Notes under the pieces: generated by a model
What the model saw: the letters and a program-made list of their open reading frames with translations, nothing else
Told to the model about the DNA's origin: nothing
The model's database searches: none
Shown here: positions 1,703 to 17,978 of the stretch, in pieces
Layout of the letters: each line of letters starts with the position of its first letter
Position numbering within the stretch: position 1 is the first letter of the stretch
Program-made: the position numbers and the translations under genes
IMG/VR virus record: IMGVR_UViG_3300042924_005664
Coordinates: 1,290 to 65,289 of that record
Strand: one strand, 5' to 3'
Length of the DNA stretch: 64,000 bases
Source of the DNA: a virus
Taxonomy: Duplodnaviria; Caudoviricetes

Positions 1703-1708
1703 AAATTT

Positions 1709-2089
1709 ATGAGAACACAGATAACCTACAAACTAGTGCTTCCCGGCACCCAAGAGTTCCTGCAGCTCCAGACCTTTGCAAAATCCTTCGATCACGAAAT
1801 TGTCCCACATCCTAAAATAAATGTTTACGCGCACTACAGAGATGAGGTATGTTTTGGCTATTCGGAACACGTTTTCGTGCCCACCGTCTATCCTGCATTT
1901 CACCCCATGCTCACCAAACCTCAAGATGTCCTACAAGTGATGGCCGACTGGCGCTCTCATAGTCAGTTCTCCTGTTCGCCAGCCTACATTGGCGTACCGC
2001 TTTCTGAAGCAAGGCCAAACTTCCCTCAAAGGATCATGGAAAAACTAGGTCTTCGTCGCCACGAGCGCGAGATCTACACCCTCGCATAA
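1709..2089 (+). CDS. Hypothetical protein, possibly GNAT-like (T7 gp13 position)
   Basis: 126 aa directly before ejection genes; ends MEKLGLRR; function inferred from position only. Confidence 0.5.
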   Translation: MRTQITYKLVLPGTQEFLQLQTFAKSFDHEIVPHPKINVYAHYRDEVCFGYSEHVFVPTVYPAFHPMLTKPQDVLQVMADWRSHSQFSCSPAYIGVPLSEARPNFPQRIMEKLGLRRHEREIYTLA

Positions 2090-2091
2090 TC

Positions 2092-2946
2092 ATGGGCGGA
2101 TCTCCACAAGTACAAGCACCCGATAACAGGCCCATGTGGGCTGCGCTGCAGATGCAGCAGAGTGGGCAGAATCAGGCGATGCAAAATCGTGCTGATCTAC
2201 TCAAGTACATGTCTCAAATTTCTCCTGCGGTCTCTTATACCGACATTTGGGGGCAGAAGGGAGCTGCAAATGTGGCGAAAGATGCCGCAGAGATCAACTA
2301 TCGCAACCAGCAGGCGATGCAGAAGGCGCTCGATCCTCAAGGTTTCCAGATTGCCGAGGATACTCGTAACCGAGTAGCCCAGATGGTTAGCCCAGCTGGA
2401 CAGAGGGCGCTAGCCAACCAGCAGTTTGCACAGCGTACGTTACCGGGAATGTACAGCACTGGCCTCGATCCCCGTTCCACCATTTACGCGAGTGGATTGT
2501 TTGACGCCAATACGCTTCAGGGTCTCCAACTTCAGCAGCAACTTGCCAACATCGGACAAGGATATGGGGCTGCGAACCCAGCGCCTCGAGTTGGAATTGA
2601 TCCCGGCATTGCGGCCTCTATCGCCTCTCAGGAAGGGGCACGTGCTGCGGATCGCGCAAACGCATTTACGCAAAATCTTCTCCAAGGTGCAGGAAACCTT
2701 CAGCAGAGCTACGAGCAAGGAATGAACAGCCTCTACAGCAACATGGGACAAGCGGTTCAAACTGATGCGGCCAACCGATTGGCAGCACAGCAAGCAAGCC
2801 AGTCCGCACAAGCTCAGGGTGCAGGATCTTTGTATCAGGGTCTAGGTGCCCTAGGTGGCGGTATAATCGGATCCTTCGGAGGCCCAGCGGGAACTGCGAG
2901 TGGAAGTTCTTTGGGAAGTTATCTGCCCAGAGCTTTTGGAGCTTGA
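2092..2946 (+). CDS. Internal virion / DNA ejection protein
   Basis: Gln/Ala-rich helical body and Gly-rich hydrophobic C-terminus (GLGALGGGIIGSFGGPAG). Confidence 0.7.
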   Translation: MGGSPQVQAPDNRPMWAALQMQQSGQNQAMQNRADLLKYMSQISPAVSYTDIWGQKGAANVAKDAAEINYRNQQAMQKALDPQGFQIAEDTRNRVAQMVSPAGQRALANQQFAQRTLPGMYSTGLDPRSTIYASGLFDANTLQGLQLQQQLANIGQGYGAANPAPRVGIDPGIAASIASQEGARAADRANAFTQNLLQGAGNLQQSYEQGMNSLYSNMGQAVQTDAANRLAAQQASQSAQAQGAGSLYQGLGALGGGIIGSFGGPAGTASGSSLGSYLPRAFGA

Positions 2947-2961
2947 AAGTAAATTTATTTG

Positions 2962-2990
2962 TTGTATCCAATTAGAAATTGCAATACAAC
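2962..2990 (+). promoter_or_regulatory. sigma70-like promoter overlapping an imperfect palindrome
   Basis: TTGTAT-N17-TACAAC; GTTGTAT...ATACAAC inverted repeat. Confidence 0.4.
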
Positions 2991-3039
2991 TGCTGACAAA
3001 ATTAACCACTAAAACTAACCCCTAACCAATTAAAATATC

Positions 3040-3540
3040 ATGGGTGGATCAAGAGGCGGCGGCGGCGGTAATAACGACAATTCAATGGCAATGATGGCGA
3101 TGATGCAGCGCCAGCAAGAAGCGGCTGCGGCTGCTGCTCGTGAAGCCGCAAGGCAAGCTGCCATCCAAGCTCAGAACCAAGCCAACCAGCAGATGGCTAA
3201 TCAAAGCCAGCAGGCGGTTAGTCAATACTTGAGCCAGCAGAATCAATTGCAAAAGGGTCAGGATCTAGCTTCAACGCAAGCCGCTGCTCAAGCAGCCGCT
3301 GGAGCTGGTGGAGCCGCTACTGGCGGTGGTTATGATATCAACCAATCCAAGCAGGAAGCGCTTTCCAATCTCGGAGCAGCCGCTGGTGGAATGCCAATGA
3401 CAGCAGCAAACCAAGTTGGAGCTGGTGGATCTACAATGAACCCAGCCGCCGCAGGACAAGCTGCAATGGTCAATCAGTCCGCTCAACCTAATCAGTTCGC
3501 TATGCCGTCCATGGCGGGGATCACTTTCGGAGGATCCTAA
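3040..3540 (+). CDS. Small Gln/Ala-rich internal virion protein
   Basis: Low-complexity helical composition, MGGS start, within ejection cluster. Confidence 0.65.
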   Translation: MGGSRGGGGGNNDNSMAMMAMMQRQQEAAAAAAREAARQAAIQAQNQANQQMANQSQQAVSQYLSQQNQLQKGQDLASTQAAAQAAAGAGGAATGGGYDINQSKQEALSNLGAAAGGMPMTAANQVGAGGSTMNPAAAGQAAMVNQSAQPNQFAMPSMAGITFGGS

Positions 3541-3552
3541 TCCCCTCCGAAA

Positions 3553-5241
3553 ATGGCGCTTGATACCTCTGGCTTTGGTTTGAATTTGGGTCAGGAGCAG
3601 GTGATTGTGCCTTCTCTTGCTTCCCTAGCTCCCTACGCACCCAACTTTCAGGGTCTCGCGTGGAAACCCGCTAATATTCAAGCTCCAGACATGTCGGAGG
3701 CTAAAGGACTAGGTGCAGCACTTGGTTCGATCGGTGCAGGAATTCAGGTTGCGTACAAGACGGCACAAGAAGAGCAGAGAGAACTTCGCAAGGACGCCCT
3801 AGACAGGGCAAAACTTGCTGCCGCTGAAAACAGGGACGCTATTCGGGAGGCACGTACTCAACAGACCCATGCCGACTCCATGGCGATGCAAGCGGCCAAC
3901 CTCGCCGTGTCTCAGGGTCAGCTGCGACTAGCACAACAAAAGCAAGCGGACAAAGCGGGTGGAGCCCCCGATTACAGCGAGTATCTAAACCCCCAAAACG
4001 CTGAGGATACCGCTGCTGGAGACAGGATCATGGATGTGATGGAGGGGATTAAAAAGAAAGGGACTCCCCAGTACTTTCCAGAATCGAAACTTGAACTAGG
4101 TGCCCCAGCGCCTCAAGTGGACGAGCCTAGTATGTCTTTCGATGGCGGGAACAATCTCGGCTCTCTATCTGCTCCAGTAGTGATGCCTCCGCAGGAGGAT
4201 CAAAGATATGCCGCGCTGCGAGAAATGGGCGGAAGTGTTTCTCCTTTCAGCGTAGCTAGTGCTGATGGAGCTGGGCCATCAGAACCAACTCCCAATCTGC
4301 CCTATTCGCTGCAGGGCGGAGTACCGAAGCCACTTGCTGGTGTGCAGGTTCCTAGCACAAGGGAGCTCTACGCTGGAACTGGATTCTCTCCAACTCCTAT
4401 TCCAACTTACGGAACTGCGGCGCAAGAAACTTCTGCGGCTAGTGGCACAGCGGCGCAACCTTCCAGATCACCGATCGTAGCGTTTCCGATAACTGATCCA
4501 AATGGAGGCACCCTAGGCTATGCGTACTACGATAAGGTTTCCCGAAAATTAATACCGGGTTCTTTCGTTTCTGAAACAAAGAAATCTGATTCCACAGCGC
4601 CCCTCGCTGGAGTTCAAATTCCAGAAGGACAAAAGTTAAAGGGCATGACTATCTCGGCGGAGGGTAAGCCTAGCTATACCTACGGACTAGAGAGTGAAGG
4701 AAAATCTGCTGCACCCCTGCTGCAGGATCAGATGAAAATCCTCACCAACCTTGAGGGCGCTAACGCCACCTTGAATAATATCGAGAAGACTCTCAAAGAA
4801 GTCGGCACTTCTACTGGCCCAGTTGTCGGCGTTGCTAGGGGATACAACCCCTACGATGTCGTCGCCCAGTCTGTGGAGAACATGGTGAATAGTTTGGTGC
4901 CGGGTCTTGCTCGCGGCGTCTTCGGCGAGGTCGGCGTTCTTACTGACCGAGATGTGGATAGGTACAAGAAACTTATCCCCAACATGAGGACAGATCCTAA
5001 AGTTGCAGAGCAGATCATGAAGGATCTGCGTGAAAAACTAAACAGCACCAAGAAAGCCAACTTGGGAGTCTGGGAAAAAGCTGGCTACAACGTGGGGGGA
5101 TTCAAAGAGGATCAATCTTCCGCGCAAACTGAGCTTGAAACTTTGGCAAAAGAAATTGATTCTGCTAAGGATCAAAACTCACCAGCTATTCTTGCAAAAA
5201 AGAAAAGAGCAACTGAACTTTACCTCTCGCAACGCAAATAA
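3553..5241 (+). CDS. Internal virion / ejection protein
   Basis: 562 aa; GLGAALGSIGAG segment then coiled coil; C-terminal GEVGVLTDRDVDRY..LIP motif seen in podovirus ejection proteins. Confidence 0.7.
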   Translation: MALDTSGFGLNLGQEQVIVPSLASLAPYAPNFQGLAWKPANIQAPDMSEAKGLGAALGSIGAGIQVAYKTAQEEQRELRKDALDRAKLAAAENRDAIREARTQQTHADSMAMQAANLAVSQGQLRLAQQKQADKAGGAPDYSEYLNPQNAEDTAAGDRIMDVMEGIKKKGTPQYFPESKLELGAPAPQVDEPSMSFDGGNNLGSLSAPVVMPPQEDQRYAALREMGGSVSPFSVASADGAGPSEPTPNLPYSLQGGVPKPLAGVQVPSTRELYAGTGFSPTPIPTYGTAAQETSAASGTAAQPSRSPIVAFPITDPNGGTLGYAYYDKVSRKLIPGSFVSETKKSDSTAPLAGVQIPEGQKLKGMTISAEGKPSYTYGLESEGKSAAPLLQDQMKILTNLEGANATLNNIEKTLKEVGTSTGPVVGVARGYNPYDVVAQSVENMVNSLVPGLARGVFGEVGVLTDRDVDRYKKLIPNMRTDPKVAEQIMKDLREKLNSTKKANLGVWEKAGYNVGGFKEDQSSAQTELETLAKEIDSAKDQNSPAILAKKKRATELYLSQRK

Positions 5242-5247
5242 TTTATT

Positions 5248-8200
5248 ATGGGATTTCTTGACGAACTGGATCAAAAATATGCTCAAGAGACCCCGAAGGA
5301 GGAACCGACTAAGCCTAGTGGTTTCTTGGGGGAGCTAGAGAGTAAGTACAAGGATGCTCCCGTAGAGCAGCCCAAGTCATTCCTAGAAGAGCTGGATCAG
5401 AAATATGACGTAAACCCAGACTCTCTACGCAATAGGCAATCTCGTGGAGAACCTCTTTCCATGGAGCAGGAGCGCATCGTATTTGATGCGAACCGAGCAC
5501 GTGGTCTTGGGGAACAAGCAGCTGCAGCTGGCAAGGGCGTCTATGCCAGCCTTAGCGAAATGGTTCCTCAAGCCTTCGAGGGAACCAAGAAAATCATGGG
5601 TGCAGGCAAAGACTTGGCAAAAGAAATTGGAATCAAGTACCTAGACGTCAATCCGCTTGTGCCTGAGATTGCGGTCAACTATATCGCTGGCAATACAGCA
5701 GAAGACCGAAAAGCTAATTTGGAAAAAGCTGCTAAGAGAGAAGCAGATATCGTCAGGTCATTAGCATCTGGAGCCGTTCAGGCTGGCGAAGAAGTAATCA
5801 ACGAAGCCGCACGTGGAGCTTTCTTTGGTACGCCCATTACAGATCTCGTTCAGGAATACCCAGCTGGCAAGTTGGCAGTTGAAGCCATGAAGGCGGGTGG
5901 CCCTGTAGCACTTGCCACTAAAGCACTTGGTGGAAAGATTTTCGGAGAGCCGCTGGTTGATCTGCAGCCGATCACAAAGGACGAATCGTTCCAGAGGTCG
6001 TTGAGTCGTGAGGACATGCGCCAGCAGGAGCAGCAGGAGTATAAAGATTTGCCAGAAAGAACTACCGCAGCGTTGGTAAAGCTAGCTGAAAGTTCCGCTG
6101 GATCTTTGCTTGGAAAATCTTTGGGAGTCCCTTCCGACGAGCAGTTCCAAAAGGACTTGGTTCAGGAGCTCAAGAATAACGCGATCGTCCCCGACGAAGA
6201 CGTTGCGTTGATGGGCAATATGTTGAGCCCGCTGGATCCTACCTTTGTCTTGGCTGGGCCGCTTGCAAGGGCATCCTCGAAGGTATTCGATGTAGCCTCA
6301 GAAGCTGGTCTTCGAGCGCTTACAAAGCCAACTATTGCTGGAATGAACCCCCTCGAAGCAACGGGACGGGTAATACGATTTAGTGGAGAGGGCGCACAGA
6401 ATGTTGCAAGAAAGTTCAGCGACTTTTTGACTGGGTCAGAAGACAGCTTCATCGGCAAGCTAGCGGATCCGATCGTGGCGGTGACTCGACGCCCCGGCAT
6501 AATGGTCGAGGGCGCAGGGCGGGCTCTCAGGGACGTCGGACGTCAGATCGACGACGTCGGAATCCGCTCCCGCACGGGCATCATCGAGCGGGCGGGGCAG
6601 GACGTACGTTCTGGGGATTTCATGCGGACGGTCTTCGGGGCTGGAACCGAGAAGGCTCAGGCCAAGGCACTCAAGGCGTCCGAAAAGCTAGCCGAGGAGG
6701 GCGTGGATACTGGCGCTTCCGCACCAGCGCTTTCCTCCAAGCGACGTGCAGCCGCGAGAACTGCGGACTGGGTATTCCGACAAGCCGAAGCCTTAGCGCG
6801 TTACGGCACAAGCGGAGCGGCCATCGGAACCGCGCTCGGACTGCCAGACATTGAGAACGCGGAGGCGCTTGGACAGATGGCTACTACTGGAGCCATGGTC
6901 GGAGCCATCGGAGGCGCGAGGCTCGGAGAGAAAGGCGCAAAGCTAATTGATCCTAGGGTTTCGCTTAAAGGAAAGATCGACGCCATCCTAGCCGACGATC
7001 CCGTATCAAGGCGTGCTGACGAGGACGCCGACATCGAGCGTTTCAGAAGTACTGCAGCACCAGACCTTATCAACAAGGCCAACGAATTTGGGAATATCAA
7101 TTCCGTTCTGCAATCTTTTGACGGCCACCTCCAGAATCTAGACTTTCAACGCGAGCAAGCGATTGCCCGTGGCGAGGCGGACGTCGCCGCTGGGATAGAG
7201 CTTGAAATTAAGAAGACTGCAGCCAGCAAGGACGCCGTTTCCAAGATGACTCCTGACGCCATGAAGGAGTACCAGCGCCGAGTGGACTTGACGCTAGCTG
7301 ACGCGCTAGACCAAGCAAAAACTACTGGCGAGGCGGTGGGTCTCAACAACATCGAGATCAAGCTGCTCTCCCCAGTCGAGATGTTGGGCTACCTTCGCGA
7401 CAAGTGGGGGACGACCCTAACGAATGCCGAGTACGTTCTCCAGTCACTGGCTGGCAACAATGATCTAAGCGATCAAGATCAGCAAAAACTTAATCAGGCG
7501 AGGGAGACTATCAACCAGTTCAACTACATGTATCAGACCGCGATGGGTCAGCGTGGATACGCCATGTCTGATAACACGTATTCAGATAGCCCCATGCATT
7601 TGCGTCCAGCAAATCTCAAGACTCCATCGGTTGTCATTAATTCCGAACTAGTCAAGAGCCAGCTCGGAAACAATCTGTACGGAACTCTGGTTCACGAAAC
7701 CAATCACGCACTTAGGAATTTCAAGGAAGTTAAATCCATGATGGCTCCCATTGAGGAGTACTTGTTTGGTAAGAAAGTTCAAAACGCTGATGGAAGCATC
7801 ACGGAGATTTCCAAAGGAATTTACGACGACGCGGCGATCGATCGCATGGGCGATTACTACGCGGAGCTTTTGGGCGGAGACAAGTGGAAGGCAGGATTCG
7901 CTACCGAGGGTCAGTATAGGAACTACATCAAGGAAGAGATTCTTGCGGAGGCCGCTGGCCTGTCCTCCAACACGGCAAACCTACGAGCTGACTTGGATTC
8001 ACCGGGTCAAGCCTTCATCGATTGGGCCGCTACCTCCAACAAGAATACCTTGATCGGAAAACTACGCGACGCACTCGGGCTGAAAGGAATCTTGCTAGAC
8101 GACTCAGGAAGAATCTCAGACGTTCTGGGAGAGACGATCTCACCAGAAGTTCTCGCGCTGACTCGTCAGTTCCAGCGCCAGCTCAGAGACTACAATGGAT

Positions 8201-11200
8201 CCTTGTCGCAAATTACTTCCGCCAGTGGGCCAGAAGTTACAATCTCAGCTCCTGAGTTGCTATCGAGCAAAATTCTTCAGAACAAGTATCGTGGGCTAGA
8301 CATCTGGCAAAAGGAACAGGTGCTCACGATCAAGGACGACGAAGGAAACGTGGTCAACGAGATCGTAGTGCCTCAGTCTGCGTCGCTCAACGCGCTCGTG
8401 GGTCAGTACCGCCTCGAAGATGGCATGCTTGTGGACGAGAACGGAAACAAGATGCAGATCGCTCCCGAGATCGCTGCAGCCAATCTCCCAAACAACACCA
8501 GTATTTCGGTAGACCAAAGAATTGCTAGGAACCCCGATGGGTCTCCAAGGATCCTATCGAATCGTGAGATTCAAGCACGTGCTAGAAAGCGCGCAGAAGT
8601 GCTGAAAAACGCCATCGAGGGCGCTATGGAGGATGGCTCAACAAACCGAGTCCGACCAGTCGGAGAAAACGAATACGCTGGAATCCTGAGCCCCACTCAG
8701 CTGCAGGCGATCTTGGAACTCCCCAACGACATCGTGGCTCCTGAGTTGAAGCGCAAGATCGCGGCCTTCAACGAGACGGCCCTACGCAAGGATGGAACGC
8801 GAATGATCGTCGAGTACCAAGCTGCGATGAAGGGCGGAAAGTACAAGGCGCTCGCACCCAAGATCCGAGACGTCGTTCCATTTGGGTTCCGCATCACAAA
8901 GGATGGCAACTTCCTAGCGACTACGATTTCTGTCAGCAGAATTTTCGACAAGATCAACGAATGGGCGAAGCCAAACAGGAACAGGCTGAACCTTTGGAAC
9001 GGCGACACCAACGCGTTGTGGGAAGACATTATCCACGTCCTGAAGAATCACCAGAAGGGCGAGCGCGGAGAAGTCGGACTCGACGTTGATCCAGACATGG
9101 CGGTTCTCAAGAAGAATCGAATCAACGACATCTTCAATCTCTTCGACAAGGCTACCGAGTCTAAGAATCCCGATCGTTCCGTAAGCAAGACGCGTAAGGG
9201 CCAAGACTCAATCGACCGCGTGATCATGGGAATGAGGATGGATCGTGTGAACGACTTCCAGATTTCAAACGCCCAGAAGATCCCCGTAGACTACGGCAAG
9301 ATCAAAGAAAACTACATGCCCAACGTGCCTGTGGACGTTGTTCAGAATAATGTTGCCGAGGAAGGCGGCTTAGGTTACAAAGAATCTCCAACCATCAAAT
9401 ATCGTGAACCAAAATACGAAACCACCAACCCCCCAAGACTGGGATACATCGATCCGCGAACTACAGCGGAAGGTCGAAGAGTCCTCAGCGAGAGTCCGAT
9501 CCTCGCGCAAGCATACGACGCCCTTGAAAGAGCGTCTGAGGCTGGCGGAGATCAGCGCCCAACTTCAGGGTCTTCGGTAATACCAGCTGAGACAGAAGCT
9601 CTTAGGGAGTTTGCAAATAGTTCGGGGGCCATGGAGTCTCCTGAAGCCGTCCAAAAATTCACTGATGATTGGAACGCAGAAAATAGAAATGCTGGAACTG
9701 AACATCAGGTTTTATTCGGCGATAAAGATCGGATAGAAAAGCGTTTCACAGCCACGTATGACGACACGTGGAAAAACTATCTCGATAGGATTTTGTTGCA
9801 CAATATCCTATTTAAAGATTCGGCGATTAAACTAGAGGGCTTTCAGGAAGTTCCTGAGAAAACACAGGATCGTAGTGGGAACGAGTGGAGCCCGGGGCTT
9901 TACGCCAAGATTTCTCAGCCCTACGCCGAAGGTCAACAGGTAGATCTCATAAAGGATCTCAAGCCGTACATGGAATCGTTGGGCTTCGTTTCTAATGGGC
10001 CGATGAATTATTACCACCCTGAATATGGCGTCCACGTATCGGATTTGCACCCGGGCAATGCATACGTAGAAATAGATGCACAAGGAAACAAGCACGTAAC
10101 CGTCTTTGATCCCGGCTTGCACATGACGGGCGAGAAAGAAGGTGACGCCAAGGAACGCGCCCGTGTTGAAGCCAAGTTGGCTGCTCAAAGACCCGTGGAG
10201 GACGTGGGTTTCAGCTGGCCGAAAGAGATTGATGACGCAATCGTTCGCGTGAGGTCGGTACTCGATAATCCAGACAACATGCCGACTCAGGTGAAGCCTG
10301 AAGCGCCGCTGCCCGTAAGCCTGTACGAGGCTGGTACTAGCTTGGAATCATTCGGGATCAATTCGCTCAAAGAAATTGCCGAGCACTATGGTTTCCCCAT
10401 CCCAGAGAAAGCAAAGCGCGGAGAGATCATCGACCTAGTTGAAAACAGGTCGTCTGACGTACAATTCAGGCCCGCAAACATCACTCGTGAAGTCGGAGCT
10501 AACGAAGACTTCATCACGATACCCGAAGAGGAAGCCGCTAGGTCTGCGCTGAACAGCAGCAAGCAGCCGAAGTTTGGGGCAGCTAGAGATCTCGAAGCTG
10601 GGTATCCCGTGGCGCTGCGAATCGACATCCCTGCGTTCAAGTCAACTGGAAACTACGTTGTGACGGTTCACGAGAAGGGAACCCCCAGCAAGGTTGGCGA
10701 GGTCATCGGGTACGACACCATTGCACGTATCGACAATCCCCAGTTCATGTCTAACGAGACTGGAGCGGAGAAGATTAAAAAAGGAGAGAGCAACAAGTTC
10801 CCGATTGCCACGGTGGCGGGAGAGTTCAACCCATCACGCGAGATGCCTGCAGATATCAACGACTGGACACCAGTCGGATTCGATCCTAGCGAGCACTCGT
10901 ACTTCTACGACAAGGCGACCGACGAGCTTGTGCTTGGCGGAGACGAGGCCGTGAGTGTTGGCAACACCGTCTTCGTTAAGAATCCAGTCTACGGCGATAA
11001 AGCCACAGCTAGGTTCATGCCAGCCGCTGGCGAGTCAAAGCCTGTCCCAACGCAGGAAGAGCTTGATGCGATGAAAGAAGGGTTGCCTCCATATCAAGCA
11101 AAAATTGGAGAGCTTTCCGAGGGGAGGTTTGGATTGAACCTGTATACTGACAATGGTTTGTATGTCGGAAACATAGAGGGTCAAATTAGAGAGTCTGATC

Positions 11201-14085
11201 CAAGTAAAGTGTATATCTATGATGCCGAAGTCATGCCTCAATATAAAAAACTAGGCTACGGACAAGCCTTGTATCGTGAGCTTGCAAAATATGCACAAGA
11301 CAATGGTGTGAAAACTATCTGGGGAAACCCCGTAAGCAAAGAAGCGGTAGCTGTTCGCAGGAAATTATTTGATACCTATACTGGGAAAGAAAACACGCTT
11401 GGCGGCTATAGTTATGCAGGAAGTAGGATTCCAAGCGACATCTCCTTCATGCCAGCAAGCAAGGGCGACTCGCCAGCCTCCAGCCTCTCCAAGGACGAGC
11501 GCGACACCGCAGTAAAGTTCCTCGAACGCGGAACACTAACCGCAGCCAACGTCTTCGACGCGCTCGCGAAGCTCGCCAACGGCGACATGCAGTCCATTAC
11601 CGAGAAGCTATCTACGGGACGCCTCTTCGAGCTCGCGCACCGCGCAACGGGCACTCCCATCCTGAACCGCGTCGATGCGATCTCCGCCATCCGCAACGAG
11701 ATCAATAGCCGCAAGGACGCAATGCCTCAGAGCAGCATTGCATCACCCATGGCCGACGACATCATCCGCACGCCAGTAAATCGTATGGCCGCGCAGGGCG
11801 CTCAATTCAAGCCCGCAACTAAAATTGAAGGGGCGGAAGAGATCGAAATAGCTCCCGGGTTCCAGAAAGCGCTAACTAAAGGCGGGAAGTGGGCTGTTTA
11901 TGCTTCCAATAATATATTAGCTACTGGAAAGCAATTCGATAGTCCTGAAGCTGCAGATGAAGCGGCTAAAATAATAGCTAACGCCAATGAACCACTTCAA
12001 GGAATCCCTTATTCCTTGCAAGAAGGACGCACTGGAAAGTGGAAGATTATCGACAAGAAGGGAGAAGCCGCAGCGTCCAAAACTTTTTCTAATCCTGCTG
12101 AAGCCGCAGAGTATGCCGTAGCATTGCATCGTGAATCATTGCCGCTTTCTGCAGTCAAAAAGTTGATGCCTAAAGCAGATAGAGATGCGGTTACTGAGGC
12201 TGAACAACGCATTGCTGACATGCAGGCTAAGAATCCTGAAGCAATGCCTCTGGTGGTGACTAGAGATGCTGATACTGGTCTTCCGAAGATTGATCTTTTA
12301 GAAGACGCAGAAGGCAATCCAGTTCTTGATGAAAAAGGCAAGCAGGTTCGTGGAGTGATCTTTAGTCAGGTTCCCTACAAGTTGCGTCAGTCTCCAATGC
12401 TTGATGCTAAAGACGACAATGTCGCAGTGCAGCAGGCAGCAGACTTAATGACTCCTGAAGTAGAAATAGCCATGGCGGATCCTTCGGTAGCCAAGGCTAT
12501 CGGATGGTACAAGAAAATGCGTCAGCAGCTGCAGCAATACTACGGCGCAAATATTGAGCTTTTCGGACAACTTCTCGGAGCTACTAGCGCACGTACTCCC
12601 GTTGATGAGAATTTCAAGCAGACTATTGAAGCTGCAAGACAATATTCTAAGGGAGCCTATGACGCTCTGCTTCAAAGATTCCATGAACATATTGTTAAGG
12701 CTACCGAAGATCTTGCTTCAGGTGCTTTACAAGCGAGTTGGGAGAAAAAGAATCCTACTAAAACTTGGAACCAAGAAAAAGATGGAGCGGACGCTCTCCG
12801 CATGGAGATCAATAAATTCAGTGAAGTTCCAGTCAGGTCTAACGGCAAAAAGTTCAATGCTAATTCCCAGAAAGTTCTGCACGCATTGTATGGGAATTGG
12901 TTGACTCAAACCGTAGGGCCGAAAACCCCCAATTTTGCTGGCAACCTCACGGGGCGCACTCTCAGAGCTACAATCGACGTTTGGGCCGCACGCAATCTTC
13001 GTCGTTTGCTTTACGACGATGGTTCTAGTCAGTGGCGTTTGCTCCCTGAACAAGAGAAAGGAGTAGACTCTGCTTACAATGCCAAAGGCGAGCTGACGGG
13101 AGATTTCCCGTTTGCCCAGAATGTGTACGACGAAGTTGCCAGTCGCGTTAATATGAACGCTGATGATTTGCAGGCTTTGATGTGGTTCTATGAAAAGGGA
13201 ATCTGGGATCAAAACGGATGGACTGGGGCACTTGGCGCTAAAAAGAGTTCCTTTGAAGAGGAGGCTGAAAAGCTGTCTCTTGATCGCTACCAAGCTGGAG
13301 TTACGGCTTACACGAACGAAGGCCAATATCCAAACCTAGAAGAATTCACTGCTGGGGTGCAGGAAAAAACCCGCAAGGAATTGCGTGATTCAATCGGCCA
13401 GCTTCCCGGTGTGGAAATCTCCAGAGTTACCCACACGGATGGACTCTATGGTGGGTCTGTAGAGCCTTCCTTGGACGTTGAATTTAGCGTTTCTCGGGAT
13501 AAGAACGGAAAACCCCAGTCGATTGCTTCCGTAATTGACAGGCTCAAGGCTATTGGAAAGGAACAAAATCAATACGATACGTTCATATCTCAGCTAGTAG
13601 ACAAAGAGCATCCGAATGCACGTCCGATGGTCGAGATAGGCTTTAAAAACGCCGCGAAACCAGAAGAAGTAGAGGCTGTTGTCAAAGCCTTCCGTGACGC
13701 TGGGATCGACGGCTTTACCCTAGCCAAGGACAGCAAAGGAAACGTGATCGGAATCCGCGCACAATACATCCCAGAGATATCTTCCCGTTGGGATGAAGAA
13801 GGCCGAACAGATCTCTTAGATCCAGAAAAACACGGCGAATCATCGCAGAATTGGGCGGATAAAGCTCGTCAAGCCATTAATTCCCTTGGCGATCAAGAGA
13901 ATGTGAGCTATAAGAATGAAGGATATGTCTCAACCCACGTTTATGGAAAAGAAGAATACGACGCAGAAACCAGCCCACAAGACCTTCTCGGAAGCGATGT
14001 CCGAGATCAATTGGGGAGAAGGAAACGAATCCTTGAAGCCCTTGCCGGGGAGGGACAGATACCTAGCGGGATCGGCTCGGACTGA
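5248..14085 (+). CDS. Giant polyvalent internal virion protein (zincin peptidase, kinase, HeH, GNAT, HhH-glycosylase-like domains)
   Basis: HETNH at ~7690; kinase GTEHQV...SDLHPGN...VFDP at ~9690-10115; GNAT QYKKLGYGQALY at ~11240; GWY...GPKTPNFAGNL...TIDVWAAR...LQALMW at ~12500-13190. Confidence 0.85.
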   Translation: MGFLDELDQKYAQETPKEEPTKPSGFLGELESKYKDAPVEQPKSFLEELDQKYDVNPDSLRNRQSRGEPLSMEQERIVFDANRARGLGEQAAAAGKGVYASLSEMVPQAFEGTKKIMGAGKDLAKEIGIKYLDVNPLVPEIAVNYIAGNTAEDRKANLEKAAKREADIVRSLASGAVQAGEEVINEAARGAFFGTPITDLVQEYPAGKLAVEAMKAGGPVALATKALGGKIFGEPLVDLQPITKDESFQRSLSREDMRQQEQQEYKDLPERTTAALVKLAESSAGSLLGKSLGVPSDEQFQKDLVQELKNNAIVPDEDVALMGNMLSPLDPTFVLAGPLARASSKVFDVASEAGLRALTKPTIAGMNPLEATGRVIRFSGEGAQNVARKFSDFLTGSEDSFIGKLADPIVAVTRRPGIMVEGAGRALRDVGRQIDDVGIRSRTGIIERAGQDVRSGDFMRTVFGAGTEKAQAKALKASEKLAEEGVDTGASAPALSSKRRAAARTADWVFRQAEALARYGTSGAAIGTALGLPDIENAEALGQMATTGAMVGAIGGARLGEKGAKLIDPRVSLKGKIDAILADDPVSRRADEDADIERFRSTAAPDLINKANEFGNINSVLQSFDGHLQNLDFQREQAIARGEADVAAGIELEIKKTAASKDAVSKMTPDAMKEYQRRVDLTLADALDQAKTTGEAVGLNNIEIKLLSPVEMLGYLRDKWGTTLTNAEYVLQSLAGNNDLSDQDQQKLNQARETINQFNYMYQTAMGQRGYAMSDNTYSDSPMHLRPANLKTPSVVINSELVKSQLGNNLYGTLVHETNHALRNFKEVKSMMAPIEEYLFGKKVQNADGSITEISKGIYDDAAIDRMGDYYAELLGGDKWKAGFATEGQYRNYIKEEILAEAAGLSSNTANLRADLDSPGQAFIDWAATSNKNTLIGKLRDALGLKGILLDDSGRISDVLGETISPEVLALTRQFQRQLRDYNGSLSQITSASGPEVTISAPELLSSKILQNKYRGLDIWQKEQVLTIKDDEGNVVNEIVVPQSASLNALVGQYRLEDGMLVDENGNKMQIAPEIAAANLPNNTSISVDQRIARNPDGSPRILSNREIQARARKRAEVLKNAIEGAMEDGSTNRVRPVGENEYAGILSPTQLQAILELPNDIVAPELKRKIAAFNETALRKDGTRMIVEYQAAMKGGKYKALAPKIRDVVPFGFRITKDGNFLATTISVSRIFDKINEWAKPNRNRLNLWNGDTNALWEDIIHVLKNHQKGERGEVGLDVDPDMAVLKKNRINDIFNLFDKATESKNPDRSVSKTRKGQDSIDRVIMGMRMDRVNDFQISNAQKIPVDYGKIKENYMPNVPVDVVQNNVAEEGGLGYKESPTIKYREPKYETTNPPRLGYIDPRTTAEGRRVLSESPILAQAYDALERASEAGGDQRPTSGSSVIPAETEALREFANSSGAMESPEAVQKFTDDWNAENRNAGTEHQVLFGDKDRIEKRFTATYDDTWKNYLDRILLHNILFKDSAIKLEGFQEVPEKTQDRSGNEWSPGLYAKISQPYAEGQQVDLIKDLKPYMESLGFVSNGPMNYYHPEYGVHVSDLHPGNAYVEIDAQGNKHVTVFDPGLHMTGEKEGDAKERARVEAKLAAQRPVEDVGFSWPKEIDDAIVRVRSVLDNPDNMPTQVKPEAPLPVSLYEAGTSLESFGINSLKEIAEHYGFPIPEKAKRGEIIDLVENRSSDVQFRPANITREVGANEDFITIPEEEAARSALNSSKQPKFGAARDLEAGYPVALRIDIPAFKSTGNYVVTVHEKGTPSKVGEVIGYDTIARIDNPQFMSNETGAEKIKKGESNKFPIATVAGEFNPSREMPADINDWTPVGFDPSEHSYFYDKATDELVLGGDEAVSVGNTVFVKNPVYGDKATARFMPAAGESKPVPTQEELDAMKEGLPPYQAKIGELSEGRFGLNLYTDNGLYVGNIEGQIRESDPSKVYIYDAEVMPQYKKLGYGQALYRELAKYAQDNGVKTIWGNPVSKEAVAVRRKLFDTYTGKENTLGGYSYAGSRIPSDISFMPASKGDSPASSLSKDERDTAVKFLERGTLTAANVFDALAKLANGDMQSITEKLSTGRLFELAHRATGTPILNRVDAISAIRNEINSRKDAMPQSSIASPMADDIIRTPVNRMAAQGAQFKPATKIEGAEEIEIAPGFQKALTKGGKWAVYASNNILATGKQFDSPEAADEAAKIIANANEPLQGIPYSLQEGRTGKWKIIDKKGEAAASKTFSNPAEAAEYAVALHRESLPLSAVKKLMPKADRDAVTEAEQRIADMQAKNPEAMPLVVTRDADTGLPKIDLLEDAEGNPVLDEKGKQVRGVIFSQVPYKLRQSPMLDAKDDNVAVQQAADLMTPEVEIAMADPSVAKAIGWYKKMRQQLQQYYGANIELFGQLLGATSARTPVDENFKQTIEAARQYSKGAYDALLQRFHEHIVKATEDLASGALQASWEKKNPTKTWNQEKDGADALRMEINKFSEVPVRSNGKKFNANSQKVLHALYGNWLTQTVGPKTPNFAGNLTGRTLRATIDVWAARNLRRLLYDDGSSQWRLLPEQEKGVDSAYNAKGELTGDFPFAQNVYDEVASRVNMNADDLQALMWFYEKGIWDQNGWTGALGAKKSSFEEEAEKLSLDRYQAGVTAYTNEGQYPNLEEFTAGVQEKTRKELRDSIGQLPGVEISRVTHTDGLYGGSVEPSLDVEFSVSRDKNGKPQSIASVIDRLKAIGKEQNQYDTFISQLVDKEHPNARPMVEIGFKNAAKPEEVEAVVKAFRDAGIDGFTLAKDSKGNVIGIRAQYIPEISSRWDEEGRTDLLDPEKHGESSQNWADKARQAINSLGDQENVSYKNEGYVSTHVYGKEEYDAETSPQDLLGSDVRDQLGRRKRILEALAGEGQIPSGIGSD
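9353..9381 (+). promoter_or_regulatory. Internal sigma70-like promoter inside giant gene
   Basis: TTGCCG-N17-TACAAA, almost the same as intergenic TTGCCA-N17-TACAAA at 41527. Confidence 0.55.
9404..9580 (+). CDS. Nested +1-frame 58-aa protein (candidate antidote to kinase domain)
   Basis: GTG AAC start as in the early genes, A/C-rich leader, promoter upstream; MNQNTKPPTPQDWDTSIRELQRKVEESSARVRSSRKHTTPLKERLRLAEISAQLQGLR. Confidence 0.55.
   Translation: MNQNTKPPTPQDWDTSIRELQRKVEESSARVRSSRKHTTPLKERLRLAEISAQLQGLR
13886..13914 (+). promoter_or_regulatory. Internal sigma70-like promoter near 3' end of giant gene
   Basis: TTGGCG-N17-TATAAG. Confidence 0.55.
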
Positions 14086-14155
14086 GTCCGAACCTAGTCC
14101 CGAAGACATAGCTCTTCTGAAACAACTATACGCAAACCGATCAACCATTCTATAA
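13925..14155 (+). CDS. Overlapping +1-frame small protein (start 13925 or 13943)
   Basis: Follows internal promoter, overlaps the end of the giant ORF and stops 2 nt before the next ATG (14158). Confidence 0.6.
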   Translation: MSQPTFMEKKNTTQKPAHKTFSEAMSEINWGEGNESLKPLPGRDRYLAGSARTESEPSPEDIALLKQLYANRSTIL

Positions 14156-14157
14156 CC

Positions 14158-14301
14158 ATGCCACTCAAATACTGCGCCTCCCAAAATTGCTTTGAACGCA
14201 ACATCGCCTCAGAAGTTCGTTCTGGCAAACCTGTAAAACAAGCTGTTGCCATCGCGTATAGCGTCAAACGTAAGGCCCAAGCAAAAGCTAGGAAAAAATA
14301 G
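14158..14301 (+). CDS. Small basic phage protein (DUF6496-like)
   Basis: MPLKYCASQNCFERNIASEVRSGKPVKQAVAIAYSVKRKAQAKARKK; KQAVAIA motif. Confidence 0.8.
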   Translation: MPLKYCASQNCFERNIASEVRSGKPVKQAVAIAYSVKRKAQAKARKK

Positions 14302-14311
14302 TCGCGTTCAA

Positions 14312-14938
14312 ATGCGAATCGAAATCAAGGCAGTTGATCCGATCGCACTGCGCGAAAAATCGGCGTGGCTAAAGGACGGCTCGCTGCAGGTTCTTGTTCC
14401 AGATTACGGAAGGAATCACGATGGCGCGTTTCTAGTTGGATTGTATGAATTGGTAAAAGCGTGGCAGTGCCACAAGGCACACATCCCCGAGGGGGCAGTT
14501 AAGCTCAAACAAGAAATCGTTGCAGCCGAGGTCGAGAGGCACGTTGCAGACGCACTCGAAATTGATTGGGAGCAGCACGAAAAGTGGGTCGAGAATTCGT
14601 ATGACGAAGTCGCTCGTAGTAGTGCAATAGAAGCTCCAAGAATTTTACTTCAAGGCCCTCGTGCTTGGGCCGAGCTGCACATCTTTGCATTACGTCATGA
14701 AGCAATGCGTCAGGGCGTCAGTGAAGCAAGTTGGTTTGAGAATTGGGTATCGGATCTCCCCTTCGATGGCTGTCCCTGCAAGGGACACCTGCACGAATTT
14801 CTCGCGCACAATCCGCCAGACTGGGACAAGTTTTTTGCGTGGTCGGTGAACCTGCACAACGCGGTGAATGCTCGTATTGGAAAACTCACGATCGGCGTCG
14901 AGCAGGCGCGTGAGCTTTGGTCTTCGAGGTTGTTCTAG
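14312..14938 (+). CDS. Erv1/Alr-like FAD sulfhydryl oxidase domain fused to a degenerate zincin-like N-terminal domain
   Basis: GPRAWAELH...LPFDGCPCKGH...FFAWSVNLHNAVNARIGK. Confidence 0.75.
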   Translation: MRIEIKAVDPIALREKSAWLKDGSLQVLVPDYGRNHDGAFLVGLYELVKAWQCHKAHIPEGAVKLKQEIVAAEVERHVADALEIDWEQHEKWVENSYDEVARSSAIEAPRILLQGPRAWAELHIFALRHEAMRQGVSEASWFENWVSDLPFDGCPCKGHLHEFLAHNPPDWDKFFAWSVNLHNAVNARIGKLTIGVEQARELWSSRLF

Positions 14939-14951
14939 CTCCTAGAGCTAG

Positions 14952-15052
14952 TGTTTATGCGGGTCAAAATAATTAAAACTTTTTGTTGCGTACCGAAGCG
15001 GAATAGGCAATACTCACTCCAGTCAGTAACAACACAACCAACCAAAGGAACC
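14952..15052 (+). promoter_or_regulatory. Early promoter cassette copy 1
   Basis: AT-rich UP element, TTGCGT-N17-AATACT, spacer CCGAAGCGGAAT, CACTCCAGTCAGTAAC. Confidence 0.75.
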
Positions 15053-15059
15053 TAATCCA

Positions 15060-15461
15060 GTGAACACACAACTACCAGTCCTCAACCAGCTCGTCATCAA
15101 GGCGCTCGAAGTCATCGGGCACCCAGCATCGATCGCCGAGATCTGCAACGAGATCGAGCGTCAGGGAAATTACTTCTCCCGCAAGCACCCCCGTCAGGAG
15201 CTGTATGTCCGCATCGGAAAGTTCCACGGCATCCGCAAGATCAGCACGGCCACCTACGCTCTCGACGAGCCCGCAGAGGTTTACGTCGAGTACGTCGGCC
15301 AGCGTGAGGGCGAGGAGCCATTCGAGCTCAACGGCCAGCGGTGGCAGTACGTCAACGTCCTCAACGGGCAGGGCAAGCGCGACATCGGAGTCTACAGCTT
15401 CGGAGAAGACCGCTGCTACGACTACAGCATCTGGCGCAGCCGCGAGCTCGCCATCAACTAA
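15060..15461 (+). CDS. Early protein with HARE-HTH-like winged helix
   Basis: ALEVIGHPASIAEICNEIERQG...KISTATYAL pattern; GTG start after AAGGA. Confidence 0.6.
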   Translation: MNTQLPVLNQLVIKALEVIGHPASIAEICNEIERQGNYFSRKHPRQELYVRIGKFHGIRKISTATYALDEPAEVYVEYVGQREGEEPFELNGQRWQYVNVLNGQGKRDIGVYSFGEDRCYDYSIWRSRELAIN

Positions 15462-15492
15462 TCAACCTCAACCAACCAAGGAGACCAAACCA

Positions 15493-16215
15493 GTGAACCA
15501 CATCATCAGCACACCAGCAGTCACACGAGTCTACAGCGACGCAGGACGCGGCGCAGCCGACAAGGCGCACAGCGACACGAACTCCTGCACCGTCAACGCT
15601 CTCGCCAATACCACGGGCTGGGAGTGGAACCTCTGCCACGACATCGCGGCAGAGTCGGGACGCAAGCGCGGCAAGGGCCACGACCCCATCAAGCTGCTAA
15701 AGCACGCGGGGCACTACGGCGTCAAGAGTCGTCGTCTTACAAGGATCAAGCGAAGCAACTCGTGGACGGTTCAAAAGTTCATCAAGAAAAACCCCACGGG
15801 GAAATTCTACGTCTGCTCATCGCGTCACGCGTTTGCAATCGTTGACGGCGTCGTCAAGGACTGGCTGCACAACGGCGACCTCGTGCGAATCGTTCAGGCG
15901 TGGCGCATCCTCGACTCGGTCTACAACAACCGCAAGGTGGTCGTGCCAGTGCACAAGCCGAAGCCACGGCCTGCAGCACGTGGAAAGCGCGTCGAGTACA
16001 GCGTGCGTCCTAGGGACAAGTACGGCGACGCACATGACGTGTGGTACTGCGACTCCAGAGCGCAGGCGCTGAAGCTCGCAAGAGAATTCAAACTGGACGA
16101 GGAAACACCGAGCATCGATGTCGAGCGCTGCACGATTGATCGCTACGACTGGACGACGGTCTTCAAGAAGACGCTGAAAGATGGCGTCGTACATGTTGAC
16201 TGCGGAGCCGCATAA
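15493..16215 (+). CDS. Early protein, papain-like Cys peptidase fold candidate
   Basis: NSCTVNALANTTG...HAFAIVDGVVKD putative Cys-His-Asp; GTG start after AAGGAG. Confidence 0.6.
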   Translation: MNHIISTPAVTRVYSDAGRGAADKAHSDTNSCTVNALANTTGWEWNLCHDIAAESGRKRGKGHDPIKLLKHAGHYGVKSRRLTRIKRSNSWTVQKFIKKNPTGKFYVCSSRHAFAIVDGVVKDWLHNGDLVRIVQAWRILDSVYNNRKVVVPVHKPKPRPAARGKRVEYSVRPRDKYGDAHDVWYCDSRAQALKLAREFKLDEETPSIDVERCTIDRYDWTTVFKKTLKDGVVHVDCGAA

Positions 16216-16222
16216 TTACAGG

Positions 16223-16314
16223 CTCAAAAATAATTAAAATTTTTCTATACAACCGAAGCGGAATAGGCAATGATCACTCCAGTCAGTAACAACCAACCAC
16301 CAACCAAAGGAACC
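16223..16314 (+). promoter_or_regulatory. Early promoter cassette copy 2
   Basis: TATACA-N17-AATGAT with the same spacer and downstream block as copy 1. Confidence 0.75.
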
Positions 16315-16320
16315 AATAAA

Positions 16321-16833
16321 GTGAACGACATCAGCATCCCAGCAGCCTTCTACGACATCGCACTCGACCGCAACGTCGCGGTGCCCGTCGAGCAAGAGAT
16401 CCGCTCCAAGGGGCGCGGCAAGCAGTACGTCATCGATCGCAACGACGAGGCGTTGCCCTACCTCATCCAGCACGCGGACGAAAGCCTTACCAAGGAGCCG
16501 AAGATCGCAGCCGCCGCACGTGGCCTCCTGCTCTCTCTCAGGAAGCAGGGAGTTCCATTCAAGCTCGTCATCAACGAGGACGCGCTGCGAGTCAGCTCCG
16601 CCAAGCCAGTCACCCGCCGCACCGCAGCCAAGGCCACGGGACGCGACTACAACCGCGAGCTGATCGTAACGATCACTCCACGCGGTGACCTGATCCTTCG
16701 CCCAGTGGGACGCCGTCAGTCCGAGCAGGTCGCTCTCTCCGACGTCTATGCTTGGGTGCAGCGCAGCCGCTGCCTCAAGATCGCCCGTGAAAAGGCCGCG
16801 CTCAAAGCCTCCAAGCGCAAGAGCCGCCGATAA
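16321..16833 (+). CDS. Early hypothetical basic protein
   Basis: GTG AAC start after AAGGA; GC3-rich codons. Confidence 0.65.
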   Translation: MNDISIPAAFYDIALDRNVAVPVEQEIRSKGRGKQYVIDRNDEALPYLIQHADESLTKEPKIAAAARGLLLSLRKQGVPFKLVINEDALRVSSAKPVTRRTAAKATGRDYNRELIVTITPRGDLILRPVGRRQSEQVALSDVYAWVQRSRCLKIAREKAALKASKRKSRR

Positions 16834-16887
16834 AAATAATCCTTTACAACCCAAGCCGATTAGATAGTATCGCTCTCGTCAGTAAAC
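16833..16887 (+). promoter_or_regulatory. Early promoter cassette copy 3 (diverged)
   Basis: TTTACA-N16-TAGTAT; CCAAGCCGATTAG spacer; GTCAGTAA block. Confidence 0.55.
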
Positions 16888-16914
16888 ACCAAACCAACAA
16901 ACACACACACTACC

Positions 16915-17064
16915 ATGCACAGCCTACAAACCATCATCTACGCCAACGCCAACGCCGAGCGCAAAGCCCGCGCAAAGGCACTCACCCACCGCGCCGAACA
17001 GGCACAGCGCAAGATCGCTGAACGCATCGCCATCTCACGCGGAATCCCCGTAAGCCATCGCTAG
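16915..17064 (+). CDS. 49-aa basic helical early protein
   Basis: ATG after AC-rich leader; MHSLQTIIYANANAERKARAK... Confidence 0.55.
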   Translation: MHSLQTIIYANANAERKARAKALTHRAEQAQRKIAERIAISRGIPVSHR

Positions 17065-17104
17065 TCAACCCGTCAGTCAACCTAACCAACAACCCACCAA
17101 CAAC

Positions 17105-17926
17105 GTGAACAACACCAACACACTCCGCCCTCAGTTCGACACCGCCACCCGCTACGTCGACACCACCACCGAGAAGTTCGCCCCGATCCGCACTGCGGAC
17201 GCGGTAGACGCGCTCCTCGACAACGGCTGGCAGATCCAGACCGCGAGCGTCGCCAAGACGCGCACGCTGGCTCGTCAACCATTCGCACGCCACGCGGCCA
17301 CGCTCTCGTTCCCAGACGACCAGTCCTCCGCTGAGTTCCGCCCGCAGATCCTGATCGTCAACAGCAACGACGGCGGATCAGCGTTCAAACTCTTCGCGGG
17401 CATCTACCGCTTCATCTGCGCCAACGGCATCGTTGTCGGCTCGACCTTCGAGGGCATCTCGATTCGCCACATCGGCGACGTCGATACCATCAAGGCTCGC
17501 ATCGTCGAGGGCGCTGACCGCATCCGCCGTGGGGCTCCCGTACTCGGAACCTTGGCCGAGCAGTTCCGCAATACCGAGCTGAACCCATCGCAGATCCTGC
17601 AGTTCAATTCGGTCGCCGCTGGCCTCCGCTTCCCCAAGCTCGGAGACCGCGACAAGCTCGCCAACCTCGCGCTGAAGTTCGACGTGGTTCGTCGCCGCGA
17701 AGACCAGAACAACGACCTCTGGACGACCTTCAACCGCGTTCAGGAGACCGCCATTCGTGGCGGCATCCAGAACGGACGCAGGCGCGTCAGGGGGCTCTCG
17801 AGCATCGGTCGCAACGTCTCGCTTAACCGCTCCCTCTGGGATCTCGCGGTGGACACTCAGGAGGGTCGCCTAGCCGAGCGCTACGACGCCTTCCAGAGCA
17901 GCATTCAGGACGCCGTACTAATCTAA
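17105..17926 (+). CDS. DUF932/DUF945-family protein
   Basis: ILIVNSNDGGSAFKLFAGIYRFICANG...RHIG; RRREDQNNDLWTTFNRVQE. Confidence 0.85.
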   Translation: MNNTNTLRPQFDTATRYVDTTTEKFAPIRTADAVDALLDNGWQIQTASVAKTRTLARQPFARHAATLSFPDDQSSAEFRPQILIVNSNDGGSAFKLFAGIYRFICANGIVVGSTFEGISIRHIGDVDTIKARIVEGADRIRRGAPVLGTLAEQFRNTELNPSQILQFNSVAAGLRFPKLGDRDKLANLALKFDVVRRREDQNNDLWTTFNRVQETAIRGGIQNGRRRVRGLSSIGRNVSLNRSLWDLAVDTQEGRLAERYDAFQSSIQDAVLI

Positions 17927-17933
17927 GGTTTAA

Positions 17934-17963
17934 TTTGGGGGCTCCCTTCGGGGAGCCTCCAAA
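17934..17963 (+). terminator. Strong hairpin with UUCG loop
   Basis: TTTGGGGGCTCCC-TTCG-GGGAGCCTCCAAA; no U-tract on + strand. Confidence 0.6.
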
Positions 17964-17978
17964 ACCATCATCACTTCA

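Follow-up and report, generated by a model that had tools for sequence, protein, structure and literature searches.

A candidate overprinted gene ahead of the kinase domain in the giant polyvalent protein gene of an uncultured virus

Introduction

Polyvalent proteins are thought to be injected together with phage or plasmid DNA in order to disarm the host, and how their enzymes stay harmless in the cell that produces them is an open question. One of their domains is Kinase-PolyVal, described by Iyer et al. 2017 (PMC5512222) as a family of Ser/Thr/Tyr-type kinases that have lost the entire C-terminal subdomain and that are found chiefly in (pro)phages of Verrucomicrobia-Chlamydia and Bacteroidetes, the kinase of T7 being the functional precedent. 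The gene arrangements closest to the one reported here are found elsewhere, i.e. in phage lambda, where the small gene Rz1 is embedded in the +1 frame of Rz and the two products bind each other (PMC6139136, PMC5295617), and in Bacillus subtilis, where comS, encoding a small regulatory peptide, lies in a distinct frame of srfAB, a giant multi-module gene, and is co-expressed from its mRNA (PMC12915044). The present study concerns a 64,000-nt stretch of DNA from an uncultured virus (bases 1290-65289 of the 65,289-base record IMGVR_UViG_3300042924_005664; hereafter the window), in which an open reading frame (ORF) of 58 codons lies in the +1 frame of a giant polyvalent protein gene, immediately ahead of the part that encodes a Kinase-PolyVal domain. 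We consider the chances about even that this ORF is truly an overprinted gene, with a helix-loop-helix peptide as its product and the kinase as the binding partner of this peptide.

Results

A conserved +1 reading frame

As an earlier note on this DNA had proposed, a 58-amino acid (aa) ORF is present in the +1 frame just before the kinase motifs: the candidate gene (9404-9580, + strand; GTG start, TAA stop) lies within the first 244 of the 855 nt that make up the kinase cassette, and its stop stands 8 nt ahead of the Pfam match to the kinase. The +1 frame as such is open from 9374 to 9577. DNA over the ORF comes from two relatives only, i.e. L001/L008, which covers the whole cassette, and L002/L009, a contig that ends at 9587; upstream, they differ from the window at roughly 8-22% of nucleotides, and both carry the intact ORF with the same start and stop. 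When compared with the window over about 8-9 kb of aligned sequence, both have their longest runs of exact identity here, and these runs define an ultra-conserved nucleotide tract at 9397-9587. For L001/L008, aligned over 1699-10847, they are 9397-9466 (70 nt) and 9530-9587 (58 nt), the next longest run being 53 nt; for L002/L009 they are 9468-9587 (120 nt) and 9397-9466 (70 nt).

Synonymous differences in the host frame nearly vanish within the ORF, with 2/50 in L001 vs 147/508 upstream (P = 8.6e-6) and 0/60 in L002 vs 141/508 upstream (P = 3.4e-9), and a 59-codon sliding scan of 1077 codons places the minimum of synonymous change at windows starting at 9397-9409. Between the window and L001, the synonymous share in the ORF (9404-9577) is 0.18 in the host frame and 0.31 in the +1 frame, compared with 0.72 and 0.10, respectively, over the whole region 7750-10980. 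Three other alternative-frame ORFs that served as controls (7751-8050, 10694-10951 and 8022-8252) are normal in this respect, with 0.67-0.85 for the host frame and 0.03-0.07 for their own. The suppression of host-frame synonymous change that is expected of an overlapping gene is thus confined to the overlap, and the synonymous-site constraint which the earlier note had named as a check is seen against both relatives.

Run X10 yielded a further contig (9358-9673) with placed differences at 9388, 9402, 9630 and 9642; four of its eight differences are unplaced, and up to four may lie inside the ORF. Runs X9, X11 and X12 gave nothing but short pieces without a difference from the window, or pieces that miss the ORF. 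For DNA of the more distant cassettes (P0009-P0012), a scan of viral contigs and an exact 34-nt probe returned only the two known contigs; scans of metagenome and genome contigs with motifs common to all known cassettes found no relative, neither blastn nor tblastn matched an INPHARED phage, and a search for shorter cassette-bearing proteins found none.

The start codon has an exceptionally good context. A matrix built from 42 gene starts ranks GTG 9404 first among the 341 ATG/GTG/TTG triplets of the giant gene (first or second once the four GTG AAC genes mentioned below are excluded from the matrix), within the top 0.5% of the window's 2518 candidates and higher than 93% of true starts in a leave-one-out comparison. 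The 72 nt around 9404 belong to the top 0.35% of A+C content in the giant gene. The ORFs at 15060, 15493, 16321 and 17105 also begin with GTG AAC after A/C-rich leaders, just as the earlier note had observed; GTGAAC as such occurs 16 times on the + strand with 17.1 expected, i.e. at chance level.

Predicted fold of the peptide and its binding to the kinase

For the 58-aa peptide (about 6.7 kDa), AlphaFold2 predicts a helix (residues 10-35), a loop and a second helix (residues 41-56), with a mean predicted local distance difference test score (pLDDT) of 79.4. The peptide contains no Cys, no hydrophobic N-terminus or hydrophobic segment and no lipobox. When it was co-folded with the kinase cassette, as the earlier note had suggested, the score was 0.84 (runs at 0.82, 0.84 and 0.85), far above the best of three controls (0.02); the input alignments comprised five sequences for the cassette and two for the peptide. 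The score mark applied was reached by 58/80 solved complexes and 2/110 mismatched pairs, counts that apply only roughly here because the co-fold was made with alignments of our own. The runs share at least 69% of contacts, with a partner pLDDT of at least 72. At the level of structural models, this supports binding of the peptide to the adjacent kinase domain.

On the kinase side, the predicted contacts comprise residues 111-127 (around AGTEHQ), 153-157, 207-212, 234-236 (H-P-G of the catalytic loop) and 241-251. Such contacts over the glycine-loop and catalytic-loop region would fit an inhibitor, though the peptide may also be an activator. The predicted interface is enriched in kinase positions at which L001 and the window differ (11/26, with the interface making up 41/203 residues; P = 0.005). 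We do not count this enrichment as support, since interface residues are surface residues, and surface varies more. Hydropathy mimicry of the overlapped host segment was considered as a cause of the docking and is not supported, the hydropathy of the peptide being unlike that of this segment (r = 0.14, with a gene-wide mean of 0.22).

The kinase domain and its mobile cassette

The Kinase-PolyVal domain (PF18762) is recognized by Pfam at 9589-10065 on the + strand (aa 1448-1606; E = 1.1e-15; 58.5 bits, cut-off 27). The motifs that the earlier note had listed are all there, i.e. GTEHQV (GTEHQ at 9694), DLHPGN (10042-10059) and FDP (10105-10113), and D232, H234, P235, G236, N237, F253, D254 and P255 are invariant in all five aligned cassettes, the other four of which are 87, 62, 60 and 55% identical to that of the window. 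Both the D-x-H-P-G-N catalytic loop and the metal-binding D of FDP are thus retained. The C-terminal kinase subdomain is absent: the cassette stops 27 residues after FDP (aa 1622 to 1649), and AlphaFold2 models these residues as one strand and one helix. The cassette model as a whole has a mean pLDDT of 73.8. Foldseek found no match to it in the PDB at E <= 0.001; the weak top rows are nearly all protein kinases, the best having an E of 0.015.

The cassette (9337-10191, + strand; 285 codons) is an insertion/deletion unit of the polyvalent protein, bounded by VPVD and PVE(D/E), and found in two positions and two backbones among relatives. The relative L003 (3001-3366) lacks exactly 9337-10191 of the window, VPVD being joined straight to PVEE, and aligns with the window over 6016-9335 and then again from 10192; L004 diverges at the same border and also lacks the cassette. 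In ten proteins the cassette is present, with 57-98% identity. P0010 carries it one module further along, P0006 has a window-like cassette within a P0009-like backbone, and in the contig from run X10 window-like cassette DNA is fused at 9358 to P0010-like upstream sequence. Another block of high identity (10891-10973, 83 nt, one difference from L001) adjoins the point near 11000 where the giant genes switch modules, which suggests that recombination breakpoints adjoin high-identity stretches.

The earlier note had also held that the host frame over the ORF reads like linker. This applies to aa 1433-1446 only. Host aa 1387-1399 (EPKYETTNPPRLG) are invariant at 12/13 positions across the five aligned cassettes, and aa 1407-1432 are predicted helices with a pLDDT of about 94. 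The wider motif LGY...EPKYE(T/K)TNPPRLG (9349-9444, host aa 1368-1399) is the best-conserved part of the five cassettes, yet in the AlphaFold2 model it is disordered, with a pLDDT of about 30. Its conservation may be that of a linear motif or may come from the overlapping start region.

Variation within the conserved tract

In the middle of the tract, L001 differs from the window in a variable patch (9467-9529) with 16 substitutions, which change nine codons in each frame; 14/16 have an A in one of the two sequences. The only changes known from DNA that lie beyond 9476-9518 are those at 9467 and 9529, and each of them replaces a host residue and leaves the +1 peptide as it is. In the host protein the patch encodes the predicted helices (pLDDT about 94), with the conserved flanks being disordered in the model; in the +1 frame it corresponds to peptide residues 25-39, i.e. 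the end of helix 1 and the loop (residues 36-40). A complementary pattern results, in which the host model is disordered where the +1 frame is conserved (cassette alignment residues 1-32 and 68-75) and helical where the +1 frame varies. P0004, P0005, P0007 and P0008 have patch alleles that are stepwise or recombinant.

For the proteins P0003-P0008, amino acid differences were recast as single-base changes on the nearest known DNA; the nucleotides are inferred in this procedure and host-silent changes are invisible to it. Among these inferred events, 7.3/10 in the ORF are synonymous in the +1 frame vs 8.3/23 elsewhere in the cassette (Fisher one-sided P = 0.068), and in peptide residues 40-58 all five are, with a null share of about 0.39. 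This excess of +1-silent changes in the ORF is suggestive only.

The promoter-like motif upstream of the ORF

TTGCCG-N17-TACAAA (9353-9381, + strand) does lie within the codons for VAEEGGLGYK, one base from TTGCCA-N17-TACAAA at 41527. That it is the ORF's own promoter, as the earlier note had it, is not borne out. The motif has 8/12 positions of the sigma-70 consensus, with a scan threshold of 9 and a consensus that may not be of the host's type, and a sigma-70 scan of 5248-18500 returned nine sites (7.2 in shuffles), with that at 9353 not among them. Matches to the 41527 motif with at most one mismatch are expected 0.31 times per shuffled window. Near-consensus hexamers at 16-18 nt spacing and above chance are thus not found at 9353. 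L001 and L002 read TATAAA at -10, and the X10 context reads TTGAAG at -35. Since the X10 contig switches sequence at 9358, the putative -35 hexamer straddles a recombination junction.

The motif is also unlike the phage's recognizable early promoter cassettes, whose A/T-rich upstream element and conserved spacer are both absent at 9353. These 73-nt cassettes, which are repeated at 14961-15033 and 16221-16293 (81% alike), have in common the A/T-rich element upstream and the conserved core ACCGAAGCGGAATAGGCAAT; at 16843-16870 stands a third, diverged copy, which reads TTTACA-N16-TAGTAT. All three copies precede A/C-rich leaders, where the four ORFs beginning with GTG AAC are found, and the repeated 73-nt cassettes are likely to be the phage's early promoters and leaders. 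By its sequence, the site at 41527 is a motif only; it lies behind genes for tRNA-Met (41353-41426) and tRNA-Gln (41442-41515), the latter being nearest, its spacer holds the palindrome GCAAC-ACGC-GTTGC, and within the same segment (41527-41705) a very basic 47-aa ORF starts from ATG 41564, only 8 nt after the -10-like hexamer. Elsewhere, CA-repeat leaders (cacacacacacacaca...) stand directly 5' of the ATGs at 30858 and 33591 (30840-30857 and 33566-33590); we take them to resemble CA-rich translation enhancers.

The giant gene and its genomic context

The gene that houses the cassette (5248-14085, + strand) encodes 2945 aa. Pfam finds a GNAT domain at aa 1962-2025 (27.1 bits, cut-off 20.7) and a match to DUF7178 below the cut-off. 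Because of the Kinase-PolyVal, GNAT and sub-threshold DUF7178 matches we regard the product as a polyvalent protein as understood by Iyer et al. 2017, and the 2945-aa ORF indeed combines several unrelated effector domains in one polypeptide. Its modules are spaced by recurring F/Y-x-P linkers (NYMPNVP, RFMPAAG, SFMPASKG, QFKPATK, QFRPANI). The gene closes a series of ORFs on one strand, among the products of which is a virion or baseplate-like protein, i.e. a 1152-aa protein (58723-62181) that matches virion and baseplate families in PHROGs; 8/10 large neighbouring proteins have no family match there. From this neighbourhood, the giant protein probably has a virion or ejection role. A second +1-frame ORF (13916-14155, 79 aa, ATG start) lies over the last 170 nt of the giant gene, extends 70 nt past the end of that gene and finishes 2 nt short of the ATG at 14158.

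All ORFs of at least 100 codons that are not nested in a longer ORF lie on the + strand, and for most of them the leader is A/T- or A/C-rich and has no Shine-Dalgarno sequence. The stretch is present in public lake and freshwater metagenome runs, and none of the 20 runs listed is of RNA.

Discussion

The loss of synonymous change confined to the ORF, the context of its start codon and the co-fold with the kinase all fit a nested +1 gene that acts on the adjacent kinase, which is the part of the earlier note's proposal that stands; the part that gave this gene a promoter of its own is unsupported. A separate promoter would also be unnecessary, because translation from the mRNA of the giant gene would suffice. 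Most likely, ribosomes would initiate internally at GTG 9404, using the late mRNA of the giant gene itself, and the resulting helix-loop-helix peptide would bind the Kinase-PolyVal domain that lacks its C-lobe and is encoded immediately downstream. By its predicted position, the peptide would be laid across the face formed by the glycine loop and the catalytic loop. As a co-made regulator it might most simply be an inhibitor that silences the kinase in the producing cell. The translation of the peptide, its timing and the direction of regulation are what we infer in this scheme.

An important question is whether a second gene is needed to account for the tract at all. It is a real possibility, though well short of a probable one, that the tract is nearly identical because of a recent exchange of this part of the cassette or a sweep, and that the patch reflects diversifying change or gene conversion in a surface helix of the host protein; the open +1 frame would then be due to chance and the co-fold a false positive. 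The following points favour this alternative or otherwise weigh against an overprinted gene. The cassette is mobile (L003 and L004 do without it, P0010 and X10 have it elsewhere, and in P0006 the backbone is a different one), and L002 carries L001's alleles up to 9467 and the window's from 9476, i.e. recombination has occurred inside the tract, besides the stepwise or recombinant patch alleles in four proteins. A further high-identity block (10891-10973) lies beside a module junction, and low dS together with high dN is also expected from a sweep at an arms-race site. Shuffling synonymous codons leaves the 58 codons free of +1 stops in 37% of 2000 cases, and the giant gene has five +1 ORFs of at least 58 codons vs 8.3 in such shuffles, so that the ORF is not longer than host-gene composition predicts. 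The A/C-richness behind the good start context is largely imposed by the conserved host motif EPKYETTNPP. In L001, 9/58 peptide residues are changed, including S33P, H37P and T39P, and since the window and L001 differ over the whole ORF by four synonymous vs nine non-synonymous codons in the +1 frame, no clear purifying selection on this frame emerges; the test of +1 synonymy, with its P of 0.068, comes partly from inferred nucleotides. The peptide has no homologue in a word-indexed search, and a profile search of 1.84 billion proteins gave two matches, both of them long repetitive proteins that hit a short stretch of the peptide repeatedly (one, P0015, is a tandem-repeat protein); there was no usable Atlas match, Pfam matches were sub-threshold only, and the language-model 'recognition' value of 1709 is below the 2300 reached by most known families. 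The co-fold score of a kinase with a helical peptide may partly stem from the model's memory of solved kinase-inhibitor complexes. Finally, the informative DNA amounts to three sequences plus short contigs of one run. What speaks for a second gene nonetheless is that the very same tract is the best-conserved one in both relatives with DNA, with a contig from a third source having no listed difference there, and that the borders coincide with those of the ORF: the listed differences of X10 stop 2 nt before the start codon (9402), and those of L001 resume 8 nt after the stop (9588). Moreover, the flanks have changed little, and then at the first or second position of a host codon and silently in the +1 frame, the best of 341 start contexts falls exactly on the first start codon of the ORF, and the co-fold exceeds the controls by 0.82 at a mark that 2/110 mismatched pairs meet.

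Other explanations keep a function for the tract and assign it differently. Separate transcription of the nested gene from a sigma-70-type promoter at 9353-9381 seems unlikely to us: the 17-nt spacer, the location about 22 nt 5' of GTG 9404, the -10 hexamer of L001 and L002, which is nearer consensus, and the preserved spacing of TTGAAG in X10 would fit it, but the few consensus positions, the resemblance to a site that is itself a motif only and the missing elements of the early promoter cassettes argue otherwise. Even less likely is a programmed +1 shift, e.g. at the run of six C at 9428-9433 (AAC CCC CCA), by which a truncated giant protein would acquire a +1 tail ending before the kinase. 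Frameshifted second products are common in structural genes of tailed phages, the +1 frame is open from 9374 and conserved, and the C run lies inside the identical 70-nt stretch. However, there is no recognized +1 shift signal, with neither a stop nor a known hungry codon after the C run, RNA structure is unremarkable (z = -1.66), both the conservation and the excellent start context begin upstream of the run, and a frameshift product would leave the fit of the free peptide to the kinase unexplained. Least of all do we expect a cis-acting nucleic acid element without coding overlap, i.e. an RNA structure, a protein-binding DNA site or the target of a diversity-generating retroelement. The nucleotide-level conservation of two flanks around a variable centre and the prevalence of A in the patch substitutions would be in line with such an element; yet an RNA element finds no support, with fold z-scores of -1.66 (+ strand) and -0.62 (- strand), compensatory change in only 1/47 predicted pairs and no Rfam family at threshold (a single match of 21.7 bits vs 160), and the sigma-70 scan finds no + strand promoter in the tract. 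As a retroelement target the tract was rejected, the window holding no second copy of it (the best other match being 13 nt) and the 65,289-base record no reverse transcriptase (RVT_1).

If the ORF is an overprinted gene for a kinase-binding peptide, this may extend beyond the window. The kinase cassettes of these polyvalent virion proteins could carry, in their first 240 nt, an overprinted 'safety catch' peptide that clamps the catalytic cleft during synthesis and packaging of the giant protein and that moves with the recombining cassette, a tentative generalization that we hold to be possible, though less likely than not. If true, the invariant disordered host motif EPKYETTNPPRLG would be conserved partly as the translation-start region and N-terminus of the peptide, and the arrangement would then reach the cassettes of 55-62% identity too. 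A cassette with a regulator in its second frame would also give a testable answer to how polyvalent enzymes stay harmless in the producer. Furthermore, small genes below the usual length cut-off could hide in giant phage genes and be detected by the loss of synonymous change.

How does this locus compare with known systems? With respect to Kinase-PolyVal as described by Iyer et al. 2017 (PMC5512222), the domain studied here is a member of the family and resides, as there, in a multi-domain phage protein with GNAT. The main text of that paper uses the word 'overlapping' zero times, i.e. it mentions no overlapping gene, and in the literature searched we found no partner peptide described for the family, nor any account of a gene that overlaps a polyvalent protein gene or its kinase part. 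Iyer et al. 2017 (PMC5512222) also draw the cassette parallel to toxin-immunity pairs for kinase-bearing polyvalent proteins, and the likeness to these pairs lies in the combination of a conflict enzyme domain with a small binding protector in exchangeable cassettes. The difference is that immunity genes are usually separate and downstream, whereas here the candidate protector is overprinted and toxicity of the kinase is only putative.

In mechanism, the predicted placement of the peptide recalls kinase regulators of other origin. PKI inhibits PKA as a helical peptide lying over the catalytic cleft, and OspG, like other minimal effector kinases, depends on binding by a partner. The complexes of PKA with the PKI peptide (5vi9) and of OspG with E2-Ub (4q5e) are among the weak Foldseek matches of the cassette model (best E = 0.015); the resemblance is one of mechanism only, as the sequences are unrelated and the Foldseek matches fall short of significance. 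As for comS, the candidate gene would likewise encode a small regulatory peptide in a distinct frame of a giant multi-module gene and be expressed from its mRNA. ComS, however, acts on an unrelated pathway, i.e. competence via MecA/ClpCP, and not on the protein that houses it, and comS is a bacterial rather than a phage gene.

The closest likeness in arrangement is that to Rz/Rz1, a small phage gene in the +1 frame with products that bind each other, which is predicted in the present case, and an embedded frame that lies over a part of the host protein tolerating variation. Rz1 is a proline-rich outer-membrane lipoprotein of a lysis cassette, whereas the peptide here has neither lipobox nor hydrophobic segment, so that the lipoprotein signal, lipobox and lysis cassette which characterize an embedded spanin are not found; its host gene is an 8.8-kb polyvalent protein gene instead of an i-spanin gene, its predicted partner is a kinase, and there is no homology. 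If the overprinted gene is real, it would thus stand beside Rz/Rz1 as a phage case in which the product of an embedded gene binds the product of the gene that houses it.

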